From the IMG/VR virus record IMGVR_UViG_2529292920_000016: a stretch of 32,229 nt of DNA; one strand, given 5' to 3'. Of this stretch, positions 1,419-32,229 are shown piece by piece. The notes under the pieces are model-generated. The model saw only the letters and a list, made by a program, of their open reading frames with translations, was not told the DNA's origin and did no database searches. Each line of letters starts with the position of its first letter. Position 1 is the stretch's first letter. A program made the translations under genes and the position numbers. The stretch comes from a virus. Its lineage: Duplodnaviria; Heunggongvirae; Uroviricota; Caudoviricetes.

Positions 1419-3890
1419 TTAAAAATCAGCCTGATTCGGGATCAGTTTTTGCCAGATAGCTGAAACGTATTTTGCCTGGTGACGAGCGTCATCAAGTGCA
1501 TTATGGCGCTCACCTTCGAATGGAATAGCCGTTCTGGCATCGAAGTCTATGGCTTTCCCCAGCTCAACGATTGTGCGTACATCGCGATCGTTGTAGTAAC
1601 GCCACGGGCAGGGGATCCCCTGCCGTTCGTATGAACGGCGCAAAATCGTGTTGTCGAAGTTGGCTCCATTTCCCCAAACCTGAACAAAAAATTCACCGGA
1701 GTTTTCGTCGATAAATTCCCGCAATTGTAACAGTGCATCATCTAACGGGATTTCATCGGTCATAATGGCAGATTGCGCTTCGCGTGATTGCTTAAGCCAC
1801 CATTTAATGGTGTCCCGATCAATGACTCCGCCAGCAGTTTCCAGATCGATAGTCTTACTAAATTCCGGTCCCATATCTCCGGTTTGCGGATCGAAAAATA
1901 TTGCACCTATTGAGATGATCGGGGCATCAGGATTTTTTCCCATGGTTTCAAGGTCGATCATTAGATGGTCACACGTCCTGCTGGTGGATGTGATTTCGTG
2001 ATGACCGTTCACCTTAATTGAGTGATCTGCCGTCTCGCCAGTCTCATTATCGCTATTGTGATGCTGATTGCCGCCAGTGTTCTCCTTGTGTGGATGCTCA
2101 GCGCCTTCCATTTCCTCCGGATCATCTTCCTGAACTTCAACCTGATACTCTTCATCGAATGTTTCCTGGTATGTTGCGTCGCCCATCACCGCACCACAAT
2201 CAGGGCAGTTGCCGCCGCCGGTCTGACCGCAGGCGGTGCAGACTTTTTCCACTTCCTGTTGCACTACTGGTTCAGGTAGTTTCGTTTCTGGCTCGTTTTG
2301 TTGCGTATTTGGGCTGTTTTGTTCCGCTTTCTGGTCGTTCTGTTCCGTTTCTTGCTGGTTCTGGTTCACAGAATCGCGGGTTTCAATCCCCTTCACCCAT
2401 TTCGGATCATTCGGATCGCTAACCCCTGCAACAAATTCACCACGTGATACTGCAAGCAGTTCATCGGCGTCAGGCTGGCTGATATTGGCTGCCTGCATAA
2501 TTTTGTTTACTTCGTCAGCGGTAACTTTTACCGGCCCTGGTTGTGCGGTCGTGTCAGATGCACCAGTATTTTGTTGTGAACCTGAGTATGTACCGTTTTT
2601 GCGGGCGAAATATTCTTCTTTCGTGATTTCAGTAGCCCCTGTAGCCAGTGCCTTATCCAGACCAGAAAGTTTGTTTGCGCGACCGTATTTTTCGCTATCC
2701 TTGTCGGTGAAGAGGAAGTAGAACGGCCCTTCACGCTCTACAGATGGTTCGACTTCCACTTTGCATTCGGTTTTTTCGTTGTCTGGAATTGCCGTTTCCA
2801 CTGCATCAGTTTCTGGTACTGGCGACGAGAGAGTATCAGTTGCGCTCTGATTTCTTCCTTCATCTTCAAACACGCCCTTTGTAGTCAGGTATTCAGTAAT
2901 GTATTTGTTCAGTGCCACAGGGTCTTTGTGAATGTCGATCGGACGTTCACGGACAAGGCCAAAAATAGTCTGGCGGTCGTAGCGAAGGGCATCAGGCTGT
3001 TTGCGCATTGATGCCGAGATACGCTTCCAGTCTTCGCGGTCGTTGTCGATAACTTCTTTTTTTGCCCAGCGATGGATGCTGCCGTCAATGTTTCCGGCAT
3101 CCACATCACCAGGCCAGAGAGCGTAGGCCAGTTCGTCATCCAGTGTTTTCCATGTCTGCTTGTATTCGCGATGAGTGGCAGCAATGACCGGGCTGATTTT
3201 TCCTGTTGAATTTTCAGTGTTCTGTTGATTGGCTCTGGCGCGGGCGAGATCAACAACAGACGTGTATTTTCCGGTTTCCTTGCGTTCACCTTCGCGACGT
3301 TTTTTCCAGATGCGCATCTCTGCCTGAATTTCGGGCCATTTGGCACCAGGCTTACATTTATGCTTAACCCACCCGATGGCATGCAGCTTAAGCTCCGGAT
3401 ACATGGCGTTAACTTCTGGCATTTTCATCAACGCTTCAACGATATGTCCGTCGAATGTTGCCATGTCTTCCTGCAACAATTCCTGTGCGCTAATCACCAT
3501 ATCAACGGTGATGTTTTCACATGTGTCGAACTTAACCATGACAGCGTTCTGTACTTCAGGGGCCAGCTTGTCAAAAGTGACGTTCATCGGATCGGATTCA
3601 GTCTCAACCGGGACAAAAGAAGCAGAATCCTCATCCCAGCGGTTTTCCTGCATATATTCAGCATCCCATGAATCGAGGGCAGGGCGGGGTATGCCAGGTT
3701 TATCCTCGCAGACAATAAATTTATAAGCGCAGTCCTGAGCAGCCGGATAATGTTCCAGGAATTGCCAGTGAAATTTTGCTCGAGCACGGCGTTCGTCGCC
3801 AGCTTCAATGGCTGTGGCTACAGCCACAGCGCCTTCTTCCCTTGTTGCCAGTTCGTCAGGAATAGCGGCGCAAATAAAGACTTTACTCAT
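1419..3890 (-). CDS. Large exonuclease-like protein with C-terminal DnaQ/DEDDh-type 3'-5' exonuclease domain (family often annotated exodeoxyribonuclease VIII-like in E. coli prophages)
   Basis: ORF track 1419..3926; likely start at internal ATG (MSKVF...) with GAGG upstream. C-terminal ~200 aa has DEDDh-like motifs (MIDLETMG..., ...HNALDDARHQAKY). Central Cys4 zinc-ribbon-like CTACGQTGGGNCPDCG and Q/N/E-rich low-complexity linker. Confidence 0.6.
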   Translation of the reverse strand: MSKVFICAAIPDELATREEGAVAVATAIEAGDERRARAKFHWQFLEHYPAAQDCAYKFIVCEDKPGIPRPALDSWDAEYMQENRWDEDSASFVPVETESDPMNVTFDKLAPEVQNAVMVKFDTCENITVDMVISAQELLQEDMATFDGHIVEALMKMPEVNAMYPELKLHAIGWVKHKCKPGAKWPEIQAEMRIWKKRREGERKETGKYTSVVDLARARANQQNTENSTGKISPVIAATHREYKQTWKTLDDELAYALWPGDVDAGNIDGSIHRWAKKEVIDNDREDWKRISASMRKQPDALRYDRQTIFGLVRERPIDIHKDPVALNKYITEYLTTKGVFEDEGRNQSATDTLSSPVPETDAVETAIPDNEKTECKVEVEPSVEREGPFYFLFTDKDSEKYGRANKLSGLDKALATGATEITKEEYFARKNGTYSGSQQNTGASDTTAQPGPVKVTADEVNKIMQAANISQPDADELLAVSRGEFVAGVSDPNDPKWVKGIETRDSVNQNQQETEQNDQKAEQNSPNTQQNEPETKLPEPVVQQEVEKVCTACGQTGGGNCPDCGAVMGDATYQETFDEEYQVEVQEDDPEEMEGAEHPHKENTGGNQHHNSDNETGETADHSIKVNGHHEITSTSRTCDHLMIDLETMGKNPDAPIISIGAIFFDPQTGDMGPEFSKTIDLETAGGVIDRDTIKWWLKQSREAQSAIMTDEIPLDDALLQLREFIDENSGEFFVQVWGNGANFDNTILRRSYERQGIPCPWRYYNDRDVRTIVELGKAIDFDARTAIPFEGERHNALDDARHQAKYVSAIWQKLIPNQADF

Positions 3891-20587: not shown

Positions 20588-20801
20588 TTAGTTTCCTTGT
20601 TTATGCCTTGCTGGTGATGTTCTGAAAAGTATAAATGATATTTTTGATTGTAAACCATAGAGCAGAATTATTTTTCTGATGTAGTTTATCCATGCATATC
20701 TGCTTGATGATGAGGTTTTTATTTAAGGTATGGTTTTGTGTTTTTTCTGTATTACATGTCAGGTATTTTAAAGAATTATTCTTCAGATGGTGGAAAGAAC
20801 C

Positions 20802-22652
20802 ATGGCATTTAAACACTATGATGTTGTCAGGGCGGCGTCGCCGTCAGATCTTGCGGAAAAGCTGACACATAAACTGAAAGAGGGCTGGCAGCCGTTTGGT
20901 AGTCCGGTGGCCATAACCCCTTATACCCTGATGCAGGCGATTGCAGCAGAAGGTGATATGGTCGTCAGTGGTGCAACTGAGCCAGAGTGGTACTACGTCA
21001 TCGTACTGGCCGGGCAATCCAATGCCATGGCTTACGGTGAAGGGCTTCCGCTTCCGGATTCATACGATGCGCCTCATCCGCGCATTAAGCAACTGGCCCG
21101 TCGTAACACAGTGACTCCCGGTGGTGAAGTATGCGTATTTAACGACATCATTCCTGCTGACCATTGTCTGCATGATGTTCAGGATATGAGTACGATTAAC
21201 CATCCCCGGGCTGACCTGAGCAAAGGGCAGTACGGCTGTGTCGGACAGGGCTTACATATTGCCAAAAAACTGCTTCCGTATATCCCTAATAATGCGGGGA
21301 TCCTGCTGGTACCATGCTGTCGTGGTGGTTCGGCATTCACCCAGGGCACGGAGGGGACATTCAGCGAGTCCACGGGGGCCAGTCAGGATTCGGCTCGCTG
21401 GGGAGTGGGTAAGCCGTTATATCAGGATCTGCTTTTCCGCACGAAGGCAGCATTGCAGAAAAACCCGAAAAACGTTTTGCTGGCGATATGCTGGATGCAG
21501 GGGGAATTCGATATGACGAATGCCAGTTACGCCCAGCAGCCAGCAGCATTTCTTGCAATGGTACAGCAGTTCCGTGCTGACTTTGCCGGGCTGGCGGCGC
21601 AGTGTCACGGTGGAAGTCCGGCATCAGTCCCCTGGATTTGTGGCGACACGACATACGCGTGGAAACAAGAACACGGTACGCAATATGAAGTGGTATATGG
21701 TGCATATAAAGGTAAAGAATCCCAGCAGATTTATTTTGTTCCCTTTATGACCGATGGTAGCGGAGTTAATACACCGACAAACAACCCGTCAGAAGATCCT
21801 GATATTGCCGGGTCTGGTTATTACGGTTCGGCATCCCGAACGAACAAAAACTGGGTATCATCAAATCGCCCGACGCATTTCAGCTCATGGACGCGTCGTG
21901 GCATTATTCCCGATCGTATGGCAACTGCTATTCTGAACGTAGCCGGTCGCACCTTAGCCTTCATTAGTGGTAAGGCACCGGAAATCAAACCCTCGCCCGG
22001 CGGCGACACGCCATCGGGGCCGTCTGAAGATGCATCCGTACGCACAATCTCCCTGTTGCCGACAGCCGGAGATGCTGCTGCGCAGGGCTGGAGCATTAAG
22101 AATGGCGGAATTCAGTTGTCAGATGGTGTATTTAAGATCACCAAGCAGAGCAATAAAACCTGGTCCCTGATGCATCCGGTGGATGACGCAATTACCCTGC
22201 TGACACAGGGCGGCAGACTGACCTGTAAGTTCCGCCTCTCAGGCGCACTGACCAACAATCAGTTCGGGCTGGGGATTTATCTGTATACGGACGCTCCCGT
22301 TCCTGATGATGTGGCGATGACGGGTACTGGTAATCCGTTCCTGATGTCTTACTTCACTCAGACCACTGACGGCAGAGTGAATCTGATGCATCACAGGAAA
22401 GCCGGAAACACGAAGCTGGGGGAGTTCGGCGATTACGGTAACGACTGGCAGACGCTGGAGCTGGTGTTCACCGCCGGCAGTGCCACGGTTACTCCGAAAC
22501 TGAATGGAGTGGCTGGCCCGGCATTCCAGGTTATAAAAGACAGTCTGACACTGGGACTGAATGCGCTGACGCTGACGGATGTTACAAAAAATGCAGCGTA
22601 TGGCGTTGAGATAGAAAGTCTGGTGCTGGAGATAAATGCACCGGCAGCATAA
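20802..22652 (+). CDS. Prophage sialate O-acetylesterase (NanS-p-like): N-terminal DUF1737-like region plus SGNH/SASA esterase domain and C-terminal lectin-like domain
   Basis: ATG 20802 with GGTGGAAAG upstream. SGNH motif VLAGQSNAMAYGEG; size and position (just upstream of the lysis cassette) match the NanS-p gene that follows stx in Stx phages. Confidence 0.75.
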   Translation: MAFKHYDVVRAASPSDLAEKLTHKLKEGWQPFGSPVAITPYTLMQAIAAEGDMVVSGATEPEWYYVIVLAGQSNAMAYGEGLPLPDSYDAPHPRIKQLARRNTVTPGGEVCVFNDIIPADHCLHDVQDMSTINHPRADLSKGQYGCVGQGLHIAKKLLPYIPNNAGILLVPCCRGGSAFTQGTEGTFSESTGASQDSARWGVGKPLYQDLLFRTKAALQKNPKNVLLAICWMQGEFDMTNASYAQQPAAFLAMVQQFRADFAGLAAQCHGGSPASVPWICGDTTYAWKQEHGTQYEVVYGAYKGKESQQIYFVPFMTDGSGVNTPTNNPSEDPDIAGSGYYGSASRTNKNWVSSNRPTHFSSWTRRGIIPDRMATAILNVAGRTLAFISGKAPEIKPSPGGDTPSGPSEDASVRTISLLPTAGDAAAQGWSIKNGGIQLSDGVFKITKQSNKTWSLMHPVDDAITLLTQGGRLTCKFRLSGALTNNQFGLGIYLYTDAPVPDDVAMTGTGNPFLMSYFTQTTDGRVNLMHHRKAGNTKLGEFGDYGNDWQTLELVFTAGSATVTPKLNGVAGPAFQVIKDSLTLGLNALTLTDVTKNAAYGVEIESLVLEINAPAA

Positions 22653-26122: not shown

Positions 26123-26671
26123 ATGAACGTCAATAAGAAAAAACTGGCCGATATTTTTGGCGTTGATGTCAGGACCATCACCGCCTGGCAGAGTCAGGGG
26201 TTACCACTAGTTTCTGGTGGAGGGAAAGGGACTGAATCAGTTTTTGATACAACTGCTGCCATTCAGTGGTATGCGCAGAGGGAAGCTGATATTGAAAACG
26301 AAAAACTCCGTAAAGAGATCGAGGATTTGAGGGCTGCCAGCGAATCAGACCTTCAGCCCGGCACCATTGATTACGAACGTTACCGACTGACGAAGGCACA
26401 GGCCGATGCACAGGAGCTGAAAAATGCTCGTGAGGAAGGCCTTGTCCTCGAGACGGAGTTATTTACCTACATCTTTCAGCGAGTGGCACAGAATATATCA
26501 GGGATCCTTGTCCGTGTCCCTCAGACACTGCAGCGTAAATACCCTGATATATCACCCGCACATCTTGATGCTGTGAAAACTGAAAGCGCGAAAGCATCCG
26601 ATGTGGCTTCTGAAGCCGGTGAGAATGTGCGCAGGTGGATTGATGATTTCAGACGAACTGAGGGCGGCTAA
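26123..26671 (+). CDS. nu1: Terminase small subunit (Nu1)
   Basis: [28 protein letters not shown]...GGGKG...EIENEKLR...[26 protein letters not shown] closely resembles lambda Nu1; GGGGGAG RBS. Confidence 0.9.
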
Positions 26672-28571
26672 TTCTGCAGGAGCGATAGCAACCGGCCTCC
26701 TTGCGCTAAAAATTCCTGTCCCTCTGACGACAGTTCAGTGGGCAGATCGACATTATTACCTTCCGAAAGAGTCATCTTACACCCCGGGGCGGTGGGAAAC
26801 ACTGCCGTTTCAGGTTGCCATCATGAACAGCATGGGGAATGACCGGATCCGCACTGTTAATCTGATTAAATCTGCCCGTGTTGGTTATACAAAGATGTTG
26901 CTGGGAGTGGAGGCTTATTTTATTGAGCATAAATCACGCAACAGCCTTCTTTTCCAGCCCACGGATTCTGCTGCTGAAGATTTTATGAAATCTCATGTGG
27001 AACCCACGATCAGGGATGTGCCGGTTTTACTCGATCTTGCACCGTGGTTTGGGCGTAAACATCGTGATAATACCCTCACGCTGAAACGCTTTTCATCGGG
27101 CGTCGGTTTCTGGTGCCTGGGCGGCGCTGCCGCCAAAAACTACCGTGAAAAATCCGTGGACGTGGTCTGCTATGACGAACTTTCCTCGTTCGAGCCGGAT
27201 GTCGAAAAAGAGGGCTCGCCAACCCTGCTGGGGGATAAGCGTATTGAGGGGTCGGTGTGGCCAAAATCCATTCGCGGCTCGACGCCTAAAATCAAAGGCA
27301 CCTGCCAGATCGAAAAAGCGGCCAACGAGTCGGCGCATTTCATGCGTTTTTATGTGCCCTGCCCGCACTGTGGGGAGGCGCAGTATCTGAAATTTGGCGA
27401 TGAGTCCACGCCTTTTGGGCTTAAATGGGAGAAGGACAGTCCCGAAAGCGTTTTCTACCTCTGTGAACATCATGGCTGCGTGATCCATCAGTCTGAGCTT
27501 GACCAGAACAACGGGCGGTGGATCTGTGAAAACACGGGCATGTGGACCCGTGACGGTCTGACGTTTTTCAGCGCCCGGGGTGATGAAATTCCGCCGCCGC
27601 GCTCCATCACGTTCCATATCTGGACGGCGTACAGTCCGTTCACCACCTGGGTACAGATTGTCTATGACTGGCTGGATGCACTGAAAGATCCCAACGGCCT
27701 GAAAACCTTTGTGAACACCACGCTGGGCGAGACCTGGGAAGAGGCCGTGGGCGAAAAACTCGATCACCAGGTACTGATGGATAAGGTGGTGCGTTACACG
27801 GCGGCGGTGCCTGCCCGGGTGGTTTATCTGACGGCGGGCATTGACTCGCAGCGAAACCGTTTTGAGATGTATGTCTGGGGATGGGCTCCGGGAGAGGAAG
27901 CTTTTCTGGTGGATAAAATCATCATTATGGGGCGTCCTGATGAGGAAGAGACGCTGTTACGTGTGGATGCGGCGATCAACAAAAAATACCGCCATGCGGA
28001 TGGCACCGAAATGACTATTTCCCGTGTCTGCTGGGACACCGGGGGGATCGATGGTGAAATTGTTTATCAGAGATCAAAAAAACACGGTGTTTTCCGGGTG
28101 CTGCCGGTAAAAGGCGCATCTGTCTATGGCAAGCCGGTGATCACCATGCCAAAAACCCGCAATCAGCGGGGCGTGTATCTGTGTGAAGTGGGAACGGACA
28201 CCGCAAAAGAAATTCTCTATGCCCGTATGAAAGCCGATCCCTCGCCTGCGGATGAAGCCACGTCGTATGCCATCCGTTTTCCTGATGATCCGGAGATTTT
28301 TTCGCAGACAGAGGCGCAGCAACTGGTGGCGGAAGAGCTGGTGGAGAAGTGGGAAAAAGGAAAGATGCGTCTGCTGTGGGATAACAAAAAGCGGCGTAAC
28401 GAAGCGCTGGACTGCCTGGTGTATGCCTACGCGGCATTACGTGTGTCCGTGCAACGCTGGCAGCTTGATCTGGCTGTACTGGCAAAATCCCGGGAAGAAG
28501 AGACGACCCGGCCAACCCTGAAAGAACTGGCAGCGAAGCTGTCCGGAGGAGTGAATGGTTACAGTCGCTGA
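26643..28571 (+). CDS. A: Terminase large subunit (gpA)
   Basis: ATG at 26643 (AGGTGG RBS) overlapping Nu1 end; high similarity to lambda A throughout ([75 protein letters not shown]). Confidence 0.9.
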
Positions 28572-28802: not shown

Positions 28803-30350
28803 GTGAGAGTCTCAGCTACGAACGGGGGCGGTGCAGGATTTGGCGGGCAAATGGCGGAGTGGTTGCCACCGGCGCAGAGTGCCGATGCGGCCCTGCTGCC
28901 CGCGTTGCGTCTGGGGAATGCCCGGGCAGATGATCTGGTGCGCAATAACGGAATAGCGGCCAATGCGGTGGCCCTGCATAAGGATCACATTGTCGGGCAT
29001 ATGTTTCTTATCAGCTACCGTCCGAACTGGCGCTGGCTGGGGATGCGGGAGACCGCAGCAAAAAGCTTTGTCGATGAGGTGGAGGCGGCCTGGTCGGAAT
29101 ACGCCGAAGGGATGTCTGGCGAGATCGACGTGGAAGGAAAACGCACGTTCACGGAATTTATCCGTGAAGGTGTGGGCGTTCATGCGTTTAACGGCGAAAT
29201 CTTTGTGCAGCCGGTCTGGGATACGGAGAGCACGCAACTGTTTCGTACGCGTTTTAAAGCCGTGAGTCCGAAACGGGTGGACACGCCAGGACACGGTATG
29301 GGGAACCGTTTTCTGCGGGCCGGTGTGGAGGTCGATCGATATGGTCGTGCCGTTGCGTACCATATCTGTGAGGATGATTTTCCGTTCTCCGGGAGTGGAC
29401 GATGGGAACGGATCCCGCGTGAACTTCCCACCGGGCGTCCGGCCATGCTGCATATTTTCGAGCCGGTGGAGGACGGGCAGACCCGTGGGGCCAATCAGTT
29501 TTACAGCGTAATGGAACGGCTGAAGATGCTCGATTCCCTGCAGGCAACACAGCTTCAGTCGGCCATAGTGAAGGCGATGTATGCAGCGACGATTGAAAGT
29601 GACCTTGATACCGAAAAGGCCTTTGAATATATCGCCGGTGCGCCGCAGGGGCAGAAGGATAATCCGCTTATTAATATTCTGGAGAAGTTCTCCAGCTGGT
29701 ATGACACGAATAGCGTGACGCTGGGTGGTGTCAAAATTCCGCACCTTTTCCCCGGTGATGATCTGAAACTTCAGACCGCGCAGGATTCAGACAATGGATT
29801 TTCGGCGCTTGAACAGGCGCTGCTGCGGTATATCGCCGCCGGTCTTGGCGTTTCCTACGAACAGTTGTCCCGTGATTACTCGAAGGTCAGTTATTCAAGT
29901 GCCAGGGCCTCTGCCAATGAGTCGTGGCGCTATTTTATGGGGCGGCGAAAATTTATTGCGGCCCGGCTGGCCACGCAGATGTTTTCCTGCTGGCTGGAAG
30001 AGGCACTTCTTCGGGGGATTATCCGTCCGCCACGGGCGCGTTTTGATTTTTATCAGGCGCGATCAGCCTGGTCACGGGCAGAGTGGATTGGTGCCGGAAG
30101 AATGGCCATTGACGGGCTCAAGGAGGTTCAGGAATCGGTGATGCGCATTGAGGCCGGACTGAGCACGTATGAGAAAGAGCTGGCGCTGATGGGCGAGGAT
30201 TATCAGGACATTTTCCGCCAGCAGGTCAGGGAATCTGCTGAGCGACAAAAAGCCGGACTCTCACGTCCGGTGTGGATAGCGCAGGCGTATGAGCAGCAGA
30301 TAGCGGAGAGTCGCAGGCCGGAAGAGGAGACAACACCCCGTGAGACGTAA
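28803..30350 (+). CDS. B: Portal protein (gpB); N-terminus apparently displaced into another frame by a frameshift
   Basis: High similarity to lambda B from GGGAGFGGQ onward. The first ~24 codons homologous to the lambda B N-terminus (..KRTPVLIDVNGVPLRESLSYERG) lie in a different frame from 28757; the frames meet at a G5 run (28824-28828). Confidence 0.85.
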   Translation: MRVSATNGGGAGFGGQMAEWLPPAQSADAALLPALRLGNARADDLVRNNGIAANAVALHKDHIVGHMFLISYRPNWRWLGMRETAAKSFVDEVEAAWSEYAEGMSGEIDVEGKRTFTEFIREGVGVHAFNGEIFVQPVWDTESTQLFRTRFKAVSPKRVDTPGHGMGNRFLRAGVEVDRYGRAVAYHICEDDFPFSGSGRWERIPRELPTGRPAMLHIFEPVEDGQTRGANQFYSVMERLKMLDSLQATQLQSAIVKAMYAATIESDLDTEKAFEYIAGAPQGQKDNPLINILEKFSSWYDTNSVTLGGVKIPHLFPGDDLKLQTAQDSDNGFSALEQALLRYIAAGLGVSYEQLSRDYSKVSYSSARASANESWRYFMGRRKFIAARLATQMFSCWLEEALLRGIIRPPRARFDFYQARSAWSRAEWIGAGRMAIDGLKEVQESVMRIEAGLSTYEKELALMGEDYQDIFRQQVRESAERQKAGLSRPVWIAQAYEQQIAESRRPEEETTPRET

Positions 30351-31845
30351 TCTTTCACACATTATTGCCGCAGCATTCAATGAACCGCTGCTTCTGGAGC
30401 CCGCCTATGCGCGGGTTTTCTTTTGCGCGCTCGGGCGCGAGATGGGGGCATCAAGTCTTTCGGTACCACAACAGCAGGTACAGTTTGATGCTCCCGGAAT
30501 GCTGGCTGAAACGGACGAGTACATGGCCGGAGGTAAACGACCGGCCCGTGTTTACCGGGTGGTGAACGGTATTGCGGTACTGCCGGTGACCGGCACGCTG
30601 GTGCACCGGCTGGGGGGGATGCGGCCATTTTCCGGAATGACTGGCTATGACGGCATTGTCGCCTGTCTTCAGCAGGCAATGGCAGATAGCCAGGTGCGGG
30701 GCATACTGCTGGACATTGACAGTCCGGGCGGGCAGGCCGCCGGCGCGTTTGACTGCGCTGACATGATTTACCGCCTCCGTCAGCAGAAGCCGGTCTGGGC
30801 ACTGTGCAATGACACGGCCTGTTCTGCAGCCATGCTGCTGGCGTCGGCCTGCTCCCGACGGCTGGTTACCCAGACATCCCGTATCGGCTCCATTGACGTG
30901 ATGATGAGCCATGTCAGCTATGCCGGTCATCTGGCGCAGGCCGGTGTGGATATCACGCTGATTTACTCAGGGGCGCACAAGGTGGATGGCAATCAGTTTG
31001 AAGCCTTACCGGCAGAGGTTCGCCAGGACATGCAGCAGCGCATTGATGCGGCGCGCCGGATGTTTGCCGAAAAAGTGGCCATGTTTACCGGTCTGTCTGT
31101 TGATGCCGTCACGGGAACAGAGGCCGCCGTTTTTGAAGGTCAGTCCGGCATTGATGCCGGGCTGGCGGATGAATTAGTCAATGCGTCGGATGCCATCAGT
31201 GTGATGGCCACGGCGCTGAACAGTAATGTCAGAGGAGGCACTATGCCGCAATTAACTGCAACGGAAGCCGCCGCGCAGGAGAACCAGCGAGTGATGGGGA
31301 TCCTGACATGCCAGGAAGCGAAAGGACGTGAACAGCTTGCCACGATGCTGGCAGGACAACAGGGCATGAGCGTTGAACAGGCCCGGGCGATTCTGGCCGC
31401 GGCGGCACCGCAGCAGCCGGTGGCATCCACGCAGAGTGAAGCCGATCGCATTATGGCGTGTGAAGAAGCGAACGGTCGTGAACAACTGGCGGCAACGCTG
31501 GCGGCGATGCCGGAGATGACGGTGGAAAAAGCCCGCCCGATCCTGGCTGCTTCACCGCAGGCGGATGCCGGACCCTCACTCCGTGATCAGATCATGGCAC
31601 TGGATGAGGCAAAAGGGGCTGAGGCGCAGGCTGAACAGCTGGCTGCCTGCCCGGGAATGACTGTGGAGAGCGCCCGGGCTGTGCTGGCTGCGGGATCAGG
31701 TAAGGCAGAACCGGTCTCTGCATCCACAACCGCCCTGTTTGAACGCATCATGGCGAACCATTCACCGGCAGCGGTACAGGGTGGCGTGCCACAGACGTCA
31801 GCAGACGGTGATGCGGACGTGAAAATGCTCATGGCCATGCCATGA
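30340..31845 (+). CDS. C: Head maturation protease / scaffold (gpC with Nu3-like C-terminal region), S49/ClpP-like
   Basis: Similarity to lambda C (protease core GILLDIDSPGGQAAGAFDCADMIYRL...). C-terminal third carries three ~45-aa tandem repeats. Confidence 0.85.
   Translation: MRRNLSHIIAAAFNEPLLLEPAYARVFFCALGREMGASSLSVPQQQVQFDAPGMLAETDEYMAGGKRPARVYRVVNGIAVLPVTGTLVHRLGGMRPFSGMTGYDGIVACLQQAMADSQVRGILLDIDSPGGQAAGAFDCADMIYRLRQQKPVWALCNDTACSAAMLLASACSRRLVTQTSRIGSIDVMMSHVSYAGHLAQAGVDITLIYSGAHKVDGNQFEALPAEVRQDMQQRIDAARRMFAEKVAMFTGLSVDAVTGTEAAVFEGQSGIDAGLADELVNASDAISVMATALNSNVRGGTMPQLTATEAAAQENQRVMGILTCQEAKGREQLATMLAGQQGMSVEQARAILAAAAPQQPVASTQSEADRIMACEEANGREQLAATLAAMPEMTVEKARPILAASPQADAGPSLRDQIMALDEAKGAEAQAEQLAACPGMTVESARAVLAAGSGKAEPVSASTTALFERIMANHSPAAVQGGVPQTSADGDADVKMLMAMP
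31300..31760 (+). repeat. Three in-frame tandem repeats (~135 nt each) within the C/Nu3-like gene
   Basis: Protein repeats: RVMGILTCQEAKGREQLATMLAGQQGMSVEQARAILAAA / RIMACEEANGREQLAATLAAMPEMTVEKARPILAAS / QIMALDEAKGAEAQAEQLAACPGMTVESARAVLAAG. Confidence 0.55.
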
Positions 31846-31881: not shown

Positions 31882-32229
31882 ATGGTGACGAAAACTATCA
31901 CTGAACAGCGTGCGGAAGTACGTATTTTTGCCGGTAATGATCCGGCTCATACCGCCACAGGCAGCAGCGGGATTTCCTCGGCAACACCGGCACTGACGCC
32001 ACTGATGCTGGATGAGGCCACCGGGAAACTGGTGGTCTGGGACGGACAAAAAGCCGGTAGTGCGGTTGGCATACTGGTACTGCCGCTTGAAGGCACAGAG
32101 ACGGCGCTGACCTATTACAAGTCGGGGACCTTTGCGACGGAGGCAATCCGCTGGCCTGAAAGTGTGGATGAACACAAAAAGGCCAACGCCTTTGCCGGCA
32201 GTGCCCTGAGTCACGCGGCGCTGCCGTAA
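31882..32229 (+). CDS. D: Head decoration protein (gpD)
   Basis: NDPAHTATG...PALTPLMLDEATGKLVVWDG...AVGIL...LTYYKSGTF...WPE...AFAG matches lambda D; ORF and stop complete at the window end. Confidence 0.85.
   Translation: MVTKTITEQRAEVRIFAGNDPAHTATGSSGISSATPALTPLMLDEATGKLVVWDGQKAGSAVGILVLPLEGTETALTYYKSGTFATEAIRWPESVDEHKKANAFAGSALSHAALP

Follow-up and report, generated by a model that had tools for sequence, protein, structure and literature searches.

The head protease gene of a lambdoid prophage carries, in the C-terminal third of its 501-residue product, three in-frame and diverged units of about 40 amino acids (aa) each, and an internal start codon is predicted to deliver the same three units in a separate scaffolding protein. 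The gene was studied in a 32,229-nucleotide (nt) stretch of DNA from IMG/VR record IMGVR_UViG_2529292920_000016 (Caudoviricetes), hereafter called the window. By sequence comparison, the units correspond to the Tri boxes of the protease/scaffold gene pair of phage 21 and are already known; what we propose is a role for them. With a probability of about 0.6, the units, possibly together with the tail that follows them, would mediate contact with the shell interior and/or self-association, giving a multivalent scaffold and loading the protease into the prohead. The phage 21 identity, the repeat anatomy, the copy-number distribution, purifying selection and the predicted fold are shown here; what the units bind and how valency acts are what we infer.

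Three diverged units in the C-terminal third of the gene

The gene contains the following features (coordinates of the window):

30340-31845, plus strand: gp5-like gene, a lambda gpC-type S49 prohead protease with a C-terminal scaffold part (open reading frame list, Pfam)
30568-31218, plus strand: S49/SppA-like protease core, aa 77-293 (Pfam, PDB sequence match, alignment to lambda C)
31233-31238, plus strand: Shine-Dalgarno sequence AGGAGG for the nested scaffold frame (sequence; annotated as the putative gene 6 ribosome-binding site in M81255.1 and OL657228.1)
31243-31845, plus strand: predicted nested in-frame gp6/Nu3-like scaffolding protein, 200 aa (phage 21 gene 6 annotation, PHROG, gene callers)
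31279-31410, plus strand: unit 1, aa 314-357, ENQRVMGILTCQEAKGREQLATMLAGQQGMSVEQARAILAAAAP (unit model; Tri1 box)
31438-31557, plus strand: unit 2, aa 367-406, EADRIMACEEANGREQLAATLAAMPEMTVEKARPILAASP (unit model; 'Tri box')
31579-31698, plus strand: unit 3, aa 414-453, LRDQIMALDEAKGAEAQAEQLAACPGMTVESARAVLAAGS (unit model; Tri3 box)
31699-31842, plus strand: unrepeated C-terminal tail, conserved with lambda, holding TALFERIMAN (about 31729-31761) and the terminal ...LMAMP (lambda ...LLNTPV)

A hidden Markov model (HMM) of the unit, built from the units of the window, lambda and Gifsy-1, gave each of the three units a score of 70-77 bits. The original prediction, made from the letters of the sequence, had described a triplicated, tandem, in-frame and diverged repeat, and its range of 31300-31760 takes in the units plus the ALFERIMAN helix of the tail. 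The internal similarity proved significant, and the repeat stands: unit-against-unit BLOSUM62 local scores were 87-101 compared with a shuffle mean of ~26 (standard deviation ~5; z = 11.5-15.5), and none of 1000 composition-preserving shuffles equalled the observed score. Since the scores far exceed those of such shuffles, the Ala-rich composition is not the cause of the similarity. The repeat is detectable at the protein level only. Tandem Repeats Finder found no repeat in the gene, a seed-based DNA repeat search returned only short and weak matches, and the in-register nucleotide identity between units is 58-68% with a longest exact run of 8 nt. The linkers between the units are predicted to be flexible and are rich in Pro, Ala, Gln and Ser.

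Across 115 single-unit representatives of the family, the signature is AE..R..gIL.C.EAKGRE.LA..LA..PGMTVE.A..ILAAAP, followed after ~12 residues by ald.aM....P. Conservation reaches 91-100% at its I, E, A, G, R, A, L, A, A and L positions; in the form I-x4-EAKGRE-x2-A-x2-LA-x4-M-x-VE-x-A-x3-LAAAP, several positions are at 93-100%. The M and P positions of the tail, at 69% and 87%, fall below this unit core. The tail helix of the window (TALFERIMAN; TALDRLMQG in lambda) is similar to the helix that opens units 2 and 3 (EADRIMA and RDQIMA), and it repeats no further part of a unit. The spacing from the Pro that ends a unit to the D-R-[IL]-M motif is 12 residues both from the lambda unit to the lambda tail and from unit 1 to unit 2 of the window.

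A nested scaffold frame

The three units, which had been assigned to a Nu3/scaffold-like part of the gene, indeed all lie inside a nested gp6 frame. The arrangement AGGAGG-N4-ATG at 31233-31245 places the ATG at 31243, which opens a 200-aa frame containing all three units; this frame is the entire C-terminus of gp5, and both products end identically. Three matches each to PHROG 8399 ('head scaffolding protein') and PHROG 8940 (lambda Nu3) were found in the 200-aa part, and gene callers give the nested frame as a separate protein of 199-200 aa (P0002, P0003). A purine-rich Shine-Dalgarno sequence with an ATG stands at the homologous position in Gifsy-1 (caggagg) and in lambda (caggaggg). A single reading frame is predicted to yield two products, the S49 protease gp5 and, via the internal start, the scaffold gp6. 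For lambda, PMC8508860, citing Shaw & Murialdo 1980 and Medina et al. 2010, describes C and Nu3 as overlapping and gpC as the protease.

The position of the lambda Nu3 start deserves a separate remark. In RefSeq (NC_001416; our locus L003), nu3 starts at C residue 239 (locus position 833), and no Shine-Dalgarno sequence lies upstream of it (gcagtcccggATG). Met309 of lambda C is preceded by caggagggcgaATG and is homologous in position to the phage 21 gene 6 start, and stand-alone open reading frames (ORFs) of 131-132 aa that begin at the Met309-equivalent position are called in two relatives (P0130, P0089). The true start of lambda Nu3 may lie downstream of the annotated one.

The units correspond to the Tri boxes of phage 21

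The gene is 98.4% identical at the nucleotide level and 97.5% identical at the amino acid level to genes 5/6 of phage 21, and 94-98.5% identical in nucleotide sequence to many E. coli phages. The GenBank record of the phage 21 head operon (M81255.1) marks a 'Tri1 box', a 'Tri box' and a 'Tri3 box' within gene 6 as repeat_region features, which fall on the window at 31310-31413, 31450-31560 and 31591-31704 and agree with our independent HMM unit calls. We identify the three units with these boxes, and the triplication is not new, having already been annotated. This prior description rests on the feature table of M81255.1, and a literature search found no open paper discussing the Tri boxes or the phage 21 scaffold. 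Genes 5/6 of phage 21 ('head-tail preconnector' gp5 and scaffold gp6; M81255.1, OL657228.1) share with the window the GTG start overlapping the portal gene, the internal ribosome-binding site with its ATG, and the three repeat boxes at the same positions. The two differ by point substitutions only, and the window copy resides in an E. coli prophage. The scaffold region of the window is 100% identical to that of O145 RM9872 and of an O103 strain.

One unit is the norm, and copy number varies from one to four

A profile made from the three window units retrieved 382 of 1.84 billion representative proteins, and copy number was counted in the best 150. One unit is present in 138 of these 150, lambda included, two units in eight (several being fragments of three-unit proteins), and three units in three. 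Since 138 of the 150 best matches carry a single unit, one unit is the norm and multi-copy forms are the minority. The one-unit proteins include 64 S49 proteases, in which the unit lies a median of 52 residues before the C-terminus, and 70 short ORFs of at most 220 aa, which are scaffold-size ORFs or fragments. The unit is the one strongly conserved module of the lambda-type scaffold family.

The gpC/gpNu3 pair of lambda shares with the window the order B-C/Nu3-D-E, the S49 core with its conserved Ser and Lys, the nesting of protease and scaffold, the same type of unit (ENSRIMGILNCEEAHGREEQARVLAETPGMTVKTARRILAAAP; 62% identical to unit 1, the window unit nearest to it) and the same tail. Lambda C differs in having one unit (aa 357-399) in a protein of 439 aa, whereas the window has three in 501 aa, and an unrelated Ser/Thr/Ala/Gln-rich stretch lies ahead of the single lambda unit; the original prediction was right that lambda C/Nu3 has no such triple repeat. 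The Gifsy-1 protease STM2605 (498 aa) and related Salmonella/Trabulsiella prophage proteases carry three units in the same order as the window, although their scaffold parts are only 53-60% identical to that of the window. Positional orthology of the units holds for the window, Gifsy-1, Trabulsiella and two further relatives (P0019, P0043): the closest match to unit 1 of the window is the first unit of P0019, Trabulsiella and P0043, and its units 2 and 3 pair in the same way with the second and third units of relatives such as P0019 and Gifsy-1. The single unit of lambda is nearest to unit 1 of the multi-unit proteins.

Copy number was altered independently in other lineages. An E. coli prophage protease (P0027) has four units, of which units 2-4 are mutually 81-89% identical, and three other relatives (P0114, P0220, P0204) have two. 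Homologues do not universally carry three units, as their copy number ranges from one to four. The P0027 locus (L091, 1-1043; GCA_032727965.1, contig ABNWJB010000046.1) belongs to a normal C-D-E-FI-FII head module on a contig whose edge truncates the 5' end of the protease gene. A two-unit form of 451 aa was found at 2501-3856 of IMGVR_UViG_2531839474_000007 (L083); it is an in-register hybrid that reads ...CQEAKGREQLA up to the junction and ATLAAMPEMTVEK... after it.

Among close relatives of the window, the three-unit form occurs in 85 of 86 related loci. The region was found in 1870 of 5426 complete E. coli genomes, at 2922 places, and in 1864 of the positive genomes, all but six, a copy spans 80% or more of the query. 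The suggestion that the repeat could be a recombination hotspot was not upheld, because the units are too diverged (58-68% nucleotide identity, exact runs of at most 8 nt) and the three-unit form is near-fixed; only rare in-register deletions were seen. Variants were taken from a protein search with the 200-aa part, which returned mostly fragments of close relatives, and a scan of genome contigs gave 6 loci, with patterns derived from a single sequence.

Two entries of these searches are unusual. P0232 (258 aa) is a Gifsy-1 gpC with Ala to Val, Thr to Ile/Met, Pro to Leu and Ser to Phe/Leu changes throughout, a pattern that identifies it as a database artefact, the translation of C-to-T converted (bisulfite-like) reads. 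P0048 (270 aa) has a DNA-methyltransferase-like N-terminus (...DPPYGS...) fused to a complete three-unit scaffold part and is probably a chimera from a rearranged prophage.

An old duplication maintained at the protein level

Between units, nucleotide identity is 67-83% at codon positions 1-2 and 36-42% at position 3. The ratio of nonsynonymous to synonymous polymorphism (pN/pS) among 39 distinct alleles lies at 0.18-0.23 for each unit, close to the value for the tail. The triplication is an old in-frame duplication maintained by selection on the protein, because codon positions 1-2 are conserved and third positions are near-random. Since the tail helix resembles the first helix of the units and the 12-residue Pro spacing matches, the sequences further suggest a duplicated segment of 'core + linker + following helix', generated by unequal exchange between two helix-coding stretches.

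Predicted structure of the unit

The AlphaFold model of the 200-aa scaffold resembles beads on a string, with a mean predicted local distance difference test (pLDDT) score of 66 and a predicted template modelling (pTM) score of 0.26. The pLDDT of the units is 72-77, that of the linkers is below 60, and the tail scores below the units. Modelled alone, unit 2 is compact (pLDDT 82, pTM 0.62): a helix and a one-turn EEA element lead into a second helix, which a six-residue loop joins to a third. For every unit, the prediction is a small, autonomously folding domain of three helices, with the order short helix, EEA turn, GRE-helix, PGM loop and TVExAR-helix.

A fold search with the whole 200-aa model gave only meaningless matches and is uninformative because of the beads-on-a-string character of that model (pTM 0.26). 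The PDB sequence search matched only SppA with the protease part and gave no match for the scaffold part, for which NCBIfam has no model either; for the unit itself we found no Pfam or NCBIfam model and no solved structural relative. Fold searches gave no match to the coat-binding helix-turn-helix of the P22 type, and very small nuclear magnetic resonance domains may be under-represented in the libraries.

The protease gene and its setting

The 501-aa ORF begins with GTG and shares its first 11 nt with the end of the portal gene. The first 300 residues form the Peptidase_S49 domain (PF01343; match at aa 146-293, E = 9e-33, above the cut-off), in agreement with the original prediction of a head protease gene of the lambda C type. 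The closest solved relatives of the protease part are SppA signal-peptide peptidases (aa 77-290, E = 3.5e-15), and Ser162 and Lys214 align with Ser166 and Lys218 of lambda C. Upstream lie the Nu1 and gpA terminase genes (26123-28571) and a lambda-family portal gene (28803-30350; Pfam), and downstream a gpD-like decoration gene (HDPD; 31882-32229; Pfam), so that the head-module order of terminase, portal, protease/scaffold and decoration protein is present in the window. We assign the ORF as the counterpart of lambda gene C because of the S49 domain and these portal, decoration and terminase neighbours.

The remainder of the window is a lambdoid prophage with an integrase, an insertion sequence (IS), a methylase and a NanS-p-like esterase. 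The last is a 621-aa protein at 20787-22652 with DUF1737, a SASA sialate O-acetylesterase domain and DUF6645; proteins of this kind are typical of lambdoid prophages of enterohaemorrhagic E. coli, in keeping with the 100% identity of the scaffold region to strains of O145 and O103. The segments 9113-12367 and 13243-14331 hold cargo consisting of a DUF5677 protein, a gap of ~1 kb, an AAA_21/AAA_15 ATPase with an AbiEii-like domain and an rve-family IS transposase. The DUF5677 protein and the ATPase are possibly a defence pair. The transposase lies on the minus strand within the prophage.

A proposed role in prohead assembly and its alternatives

In the reading that we favour, the units would attach scaffold and protease to the inside of the major-capsid-protein shell as it assembles, and/or to each other, and three of them in one chain would render the scaffold multivalent. 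The C-terminus shared by gp5 and gp6 would co-encapsidate the protease with the scaffold, and the encapsidated protease would later digest it. For lambda, Nu3-E, Nu3-Nu3 and C-Nu3 interactions have been reported, and Nu3 is required for portal incorporation (PMC3224144). Accounts of P22 and other phage scaffolds describe a small C-terminal helical domain that binds coat protein, in P22 a helix-turn-helix. This domain of P22 gp8 resembles the units as a small charged helical module that ends a flexible scaffold, and we propose an analogous role only: there is no sequence similarity, and P22 has one domain and no protease, whereas the unit of the window is repeated and shared with the protease. 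A further parallel is the herpesvirus UL26/UL26.5 pair, an in-frame nested protease and scaffold whose shared C-terminus targets both to the capsid interior; its protease is unrelated in fold and sequence, and its shared part has no internal repeat. The original prediction allowed that the repeat expansion could alter capsid assembly; phage 21 and lambda-21 hybrids form normal lambda-sized heads.

Several observations weigh against a shell-contact or self-association role that depends on the repeated units. First, the box annotations in M81255.1 carry the note 'function unknown; putative'. Second, the coat-binding determinant could alternatively sit in the unrepeated tail. Third, close relatives include rare deletion forms: in L083 and P0020, units 1 and 2 are merged into a hybrid, with a different junction in each, P0021 has no unit 2, and P0009 and P0011 (53 member sequences) as well as H90 have a 19-aa deletion inside unit 2. 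L083 is surrounded by intact portal, decoration and capsid ORFs, and because two-unit and damaged-unit-2 variants sit in otherwise intact head modules, three copies are perhaps not required. At last, unit 3 of the window has GAE (31609-31617, aa 424-426) where 93% of the family has GRE, and unit 3 of Gifsy-1 retains the canonical GRE; unit 3 of the window may be weakened or specialised.

One alternative is that the extra units are dispensable spacer or ballast, in which case one unit or the tail alone works, and units 2 and 3 harmlessly lengthen a flexible scaffold as does the Ser/Thr/Ala/Gln-rich stretch of lambda Nu3. The intact head modules around the two-unit and deleted forms and the loss of the conserved Arg from unit 3 fit it, as do the sufficiency of one unit in most family members and the unrelated low-complexity stretch ahead of the lambda unit. 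However, the three units have stayed in register and recognisable in E. coli, Salmonella Gifsy-1, Trabulsiella and further relatives (P0092, P0068, P0076), pN/pS is ~0.2 per unit and not above that of unit 1 or the tail, the gene is full length in 1864 of the 1870 positive E. coli genomes, and a separate lineage grew to four units. We regard dispensability as unlikely.

A second alternative, which we consider improbable, is that the units serve self-association rather than shell binding. The first helix of a unit (xDRIMA) would pack on its own core, and the extra copy of it in the tail (ALFERIMAN; ALDRLMQG in lambda) would dock in trans on the core of another chain. Scaffold and protease chains would in this way be joined head to tail into a network whose valency is set by copy number. 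The pattern of helix-core-helix-core-helix-core-helix in the window and helix-core-helix in lambda would suit such docking, and so would the common 12-residue spacing from Pro to D-R-[IL]-M and the Nu3-Nu3 and C-Nu3 interactions reported for lambda (PMC3224144). Yet the helix motif spans only ~6 residues, and the M and P positions of the tail (69% and 87%) are less conserved than the core.

It is very improbable that the second half of the unit (LAxxPGMTVExARxIL) is a DNA-binding helix-hairpin-helix and the repeats an array of DNA contacts inside the head. The half-unit has a superficial likeness to hxxhxGhGxxxAxxhh, and unit 3, alone of the three, matched Pfam HHH (PF00633) weakly (E = 0.094, 13 bits against a cut-off of 24); we rejected this candidate, as the match is below threshold and the fold searches lent no support. 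A DNA- or RNA-level function (regulatory sites or structured RNA), with the protein repeat as a by-product, is effectively refuted because the conservation between units sits at codon positions 1-2 with near-random third positions, and there is no tandem DNA repeat. What favoured it were two minus-strand 'CII binding sites' (TTGYN6TTGY) annotated in gene 6 by OL657228.1 (window 31248-31261 and 31482-31495), but these are products of pattern matching, since the motif occurs at chance frequency in the window (5 observed, 7.9 expected). A promoter and terminator scan of the region showed no excess of promoter- or terminator-like sites.

Beyond the proposed contact role, a more speculative extension, which we put forward as doubtful, is that the ~40-aa unit is a self-contained capsid-interior/self-association domain whose copy number tunes scaffold valency: one in lambda and most relatives, two in rare variants, three in the phage 21/Gifsy-1 type and four in another E. 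coli prophage lineage. The tail helix might then dock in trans and polymerise the scaffold and the protease.

As a discovery, the repeat counts for little: its annotation in phage 21 dates from the early 1990s, and roughly one complete E. coli genome in three contains it. Its remaining value is that the unit is the most conserved piece of the lambda-type scaffolds, yet has no domain-family entry or solved structure. The natural one-, two-, three- and four-copy forms could serve to study the working of scaffold valency and of protease co-encapsidation in the lambda system, and if the unit does tune valency, these variants would be a ready-made series on how scaffold valency controls prohead assembly.

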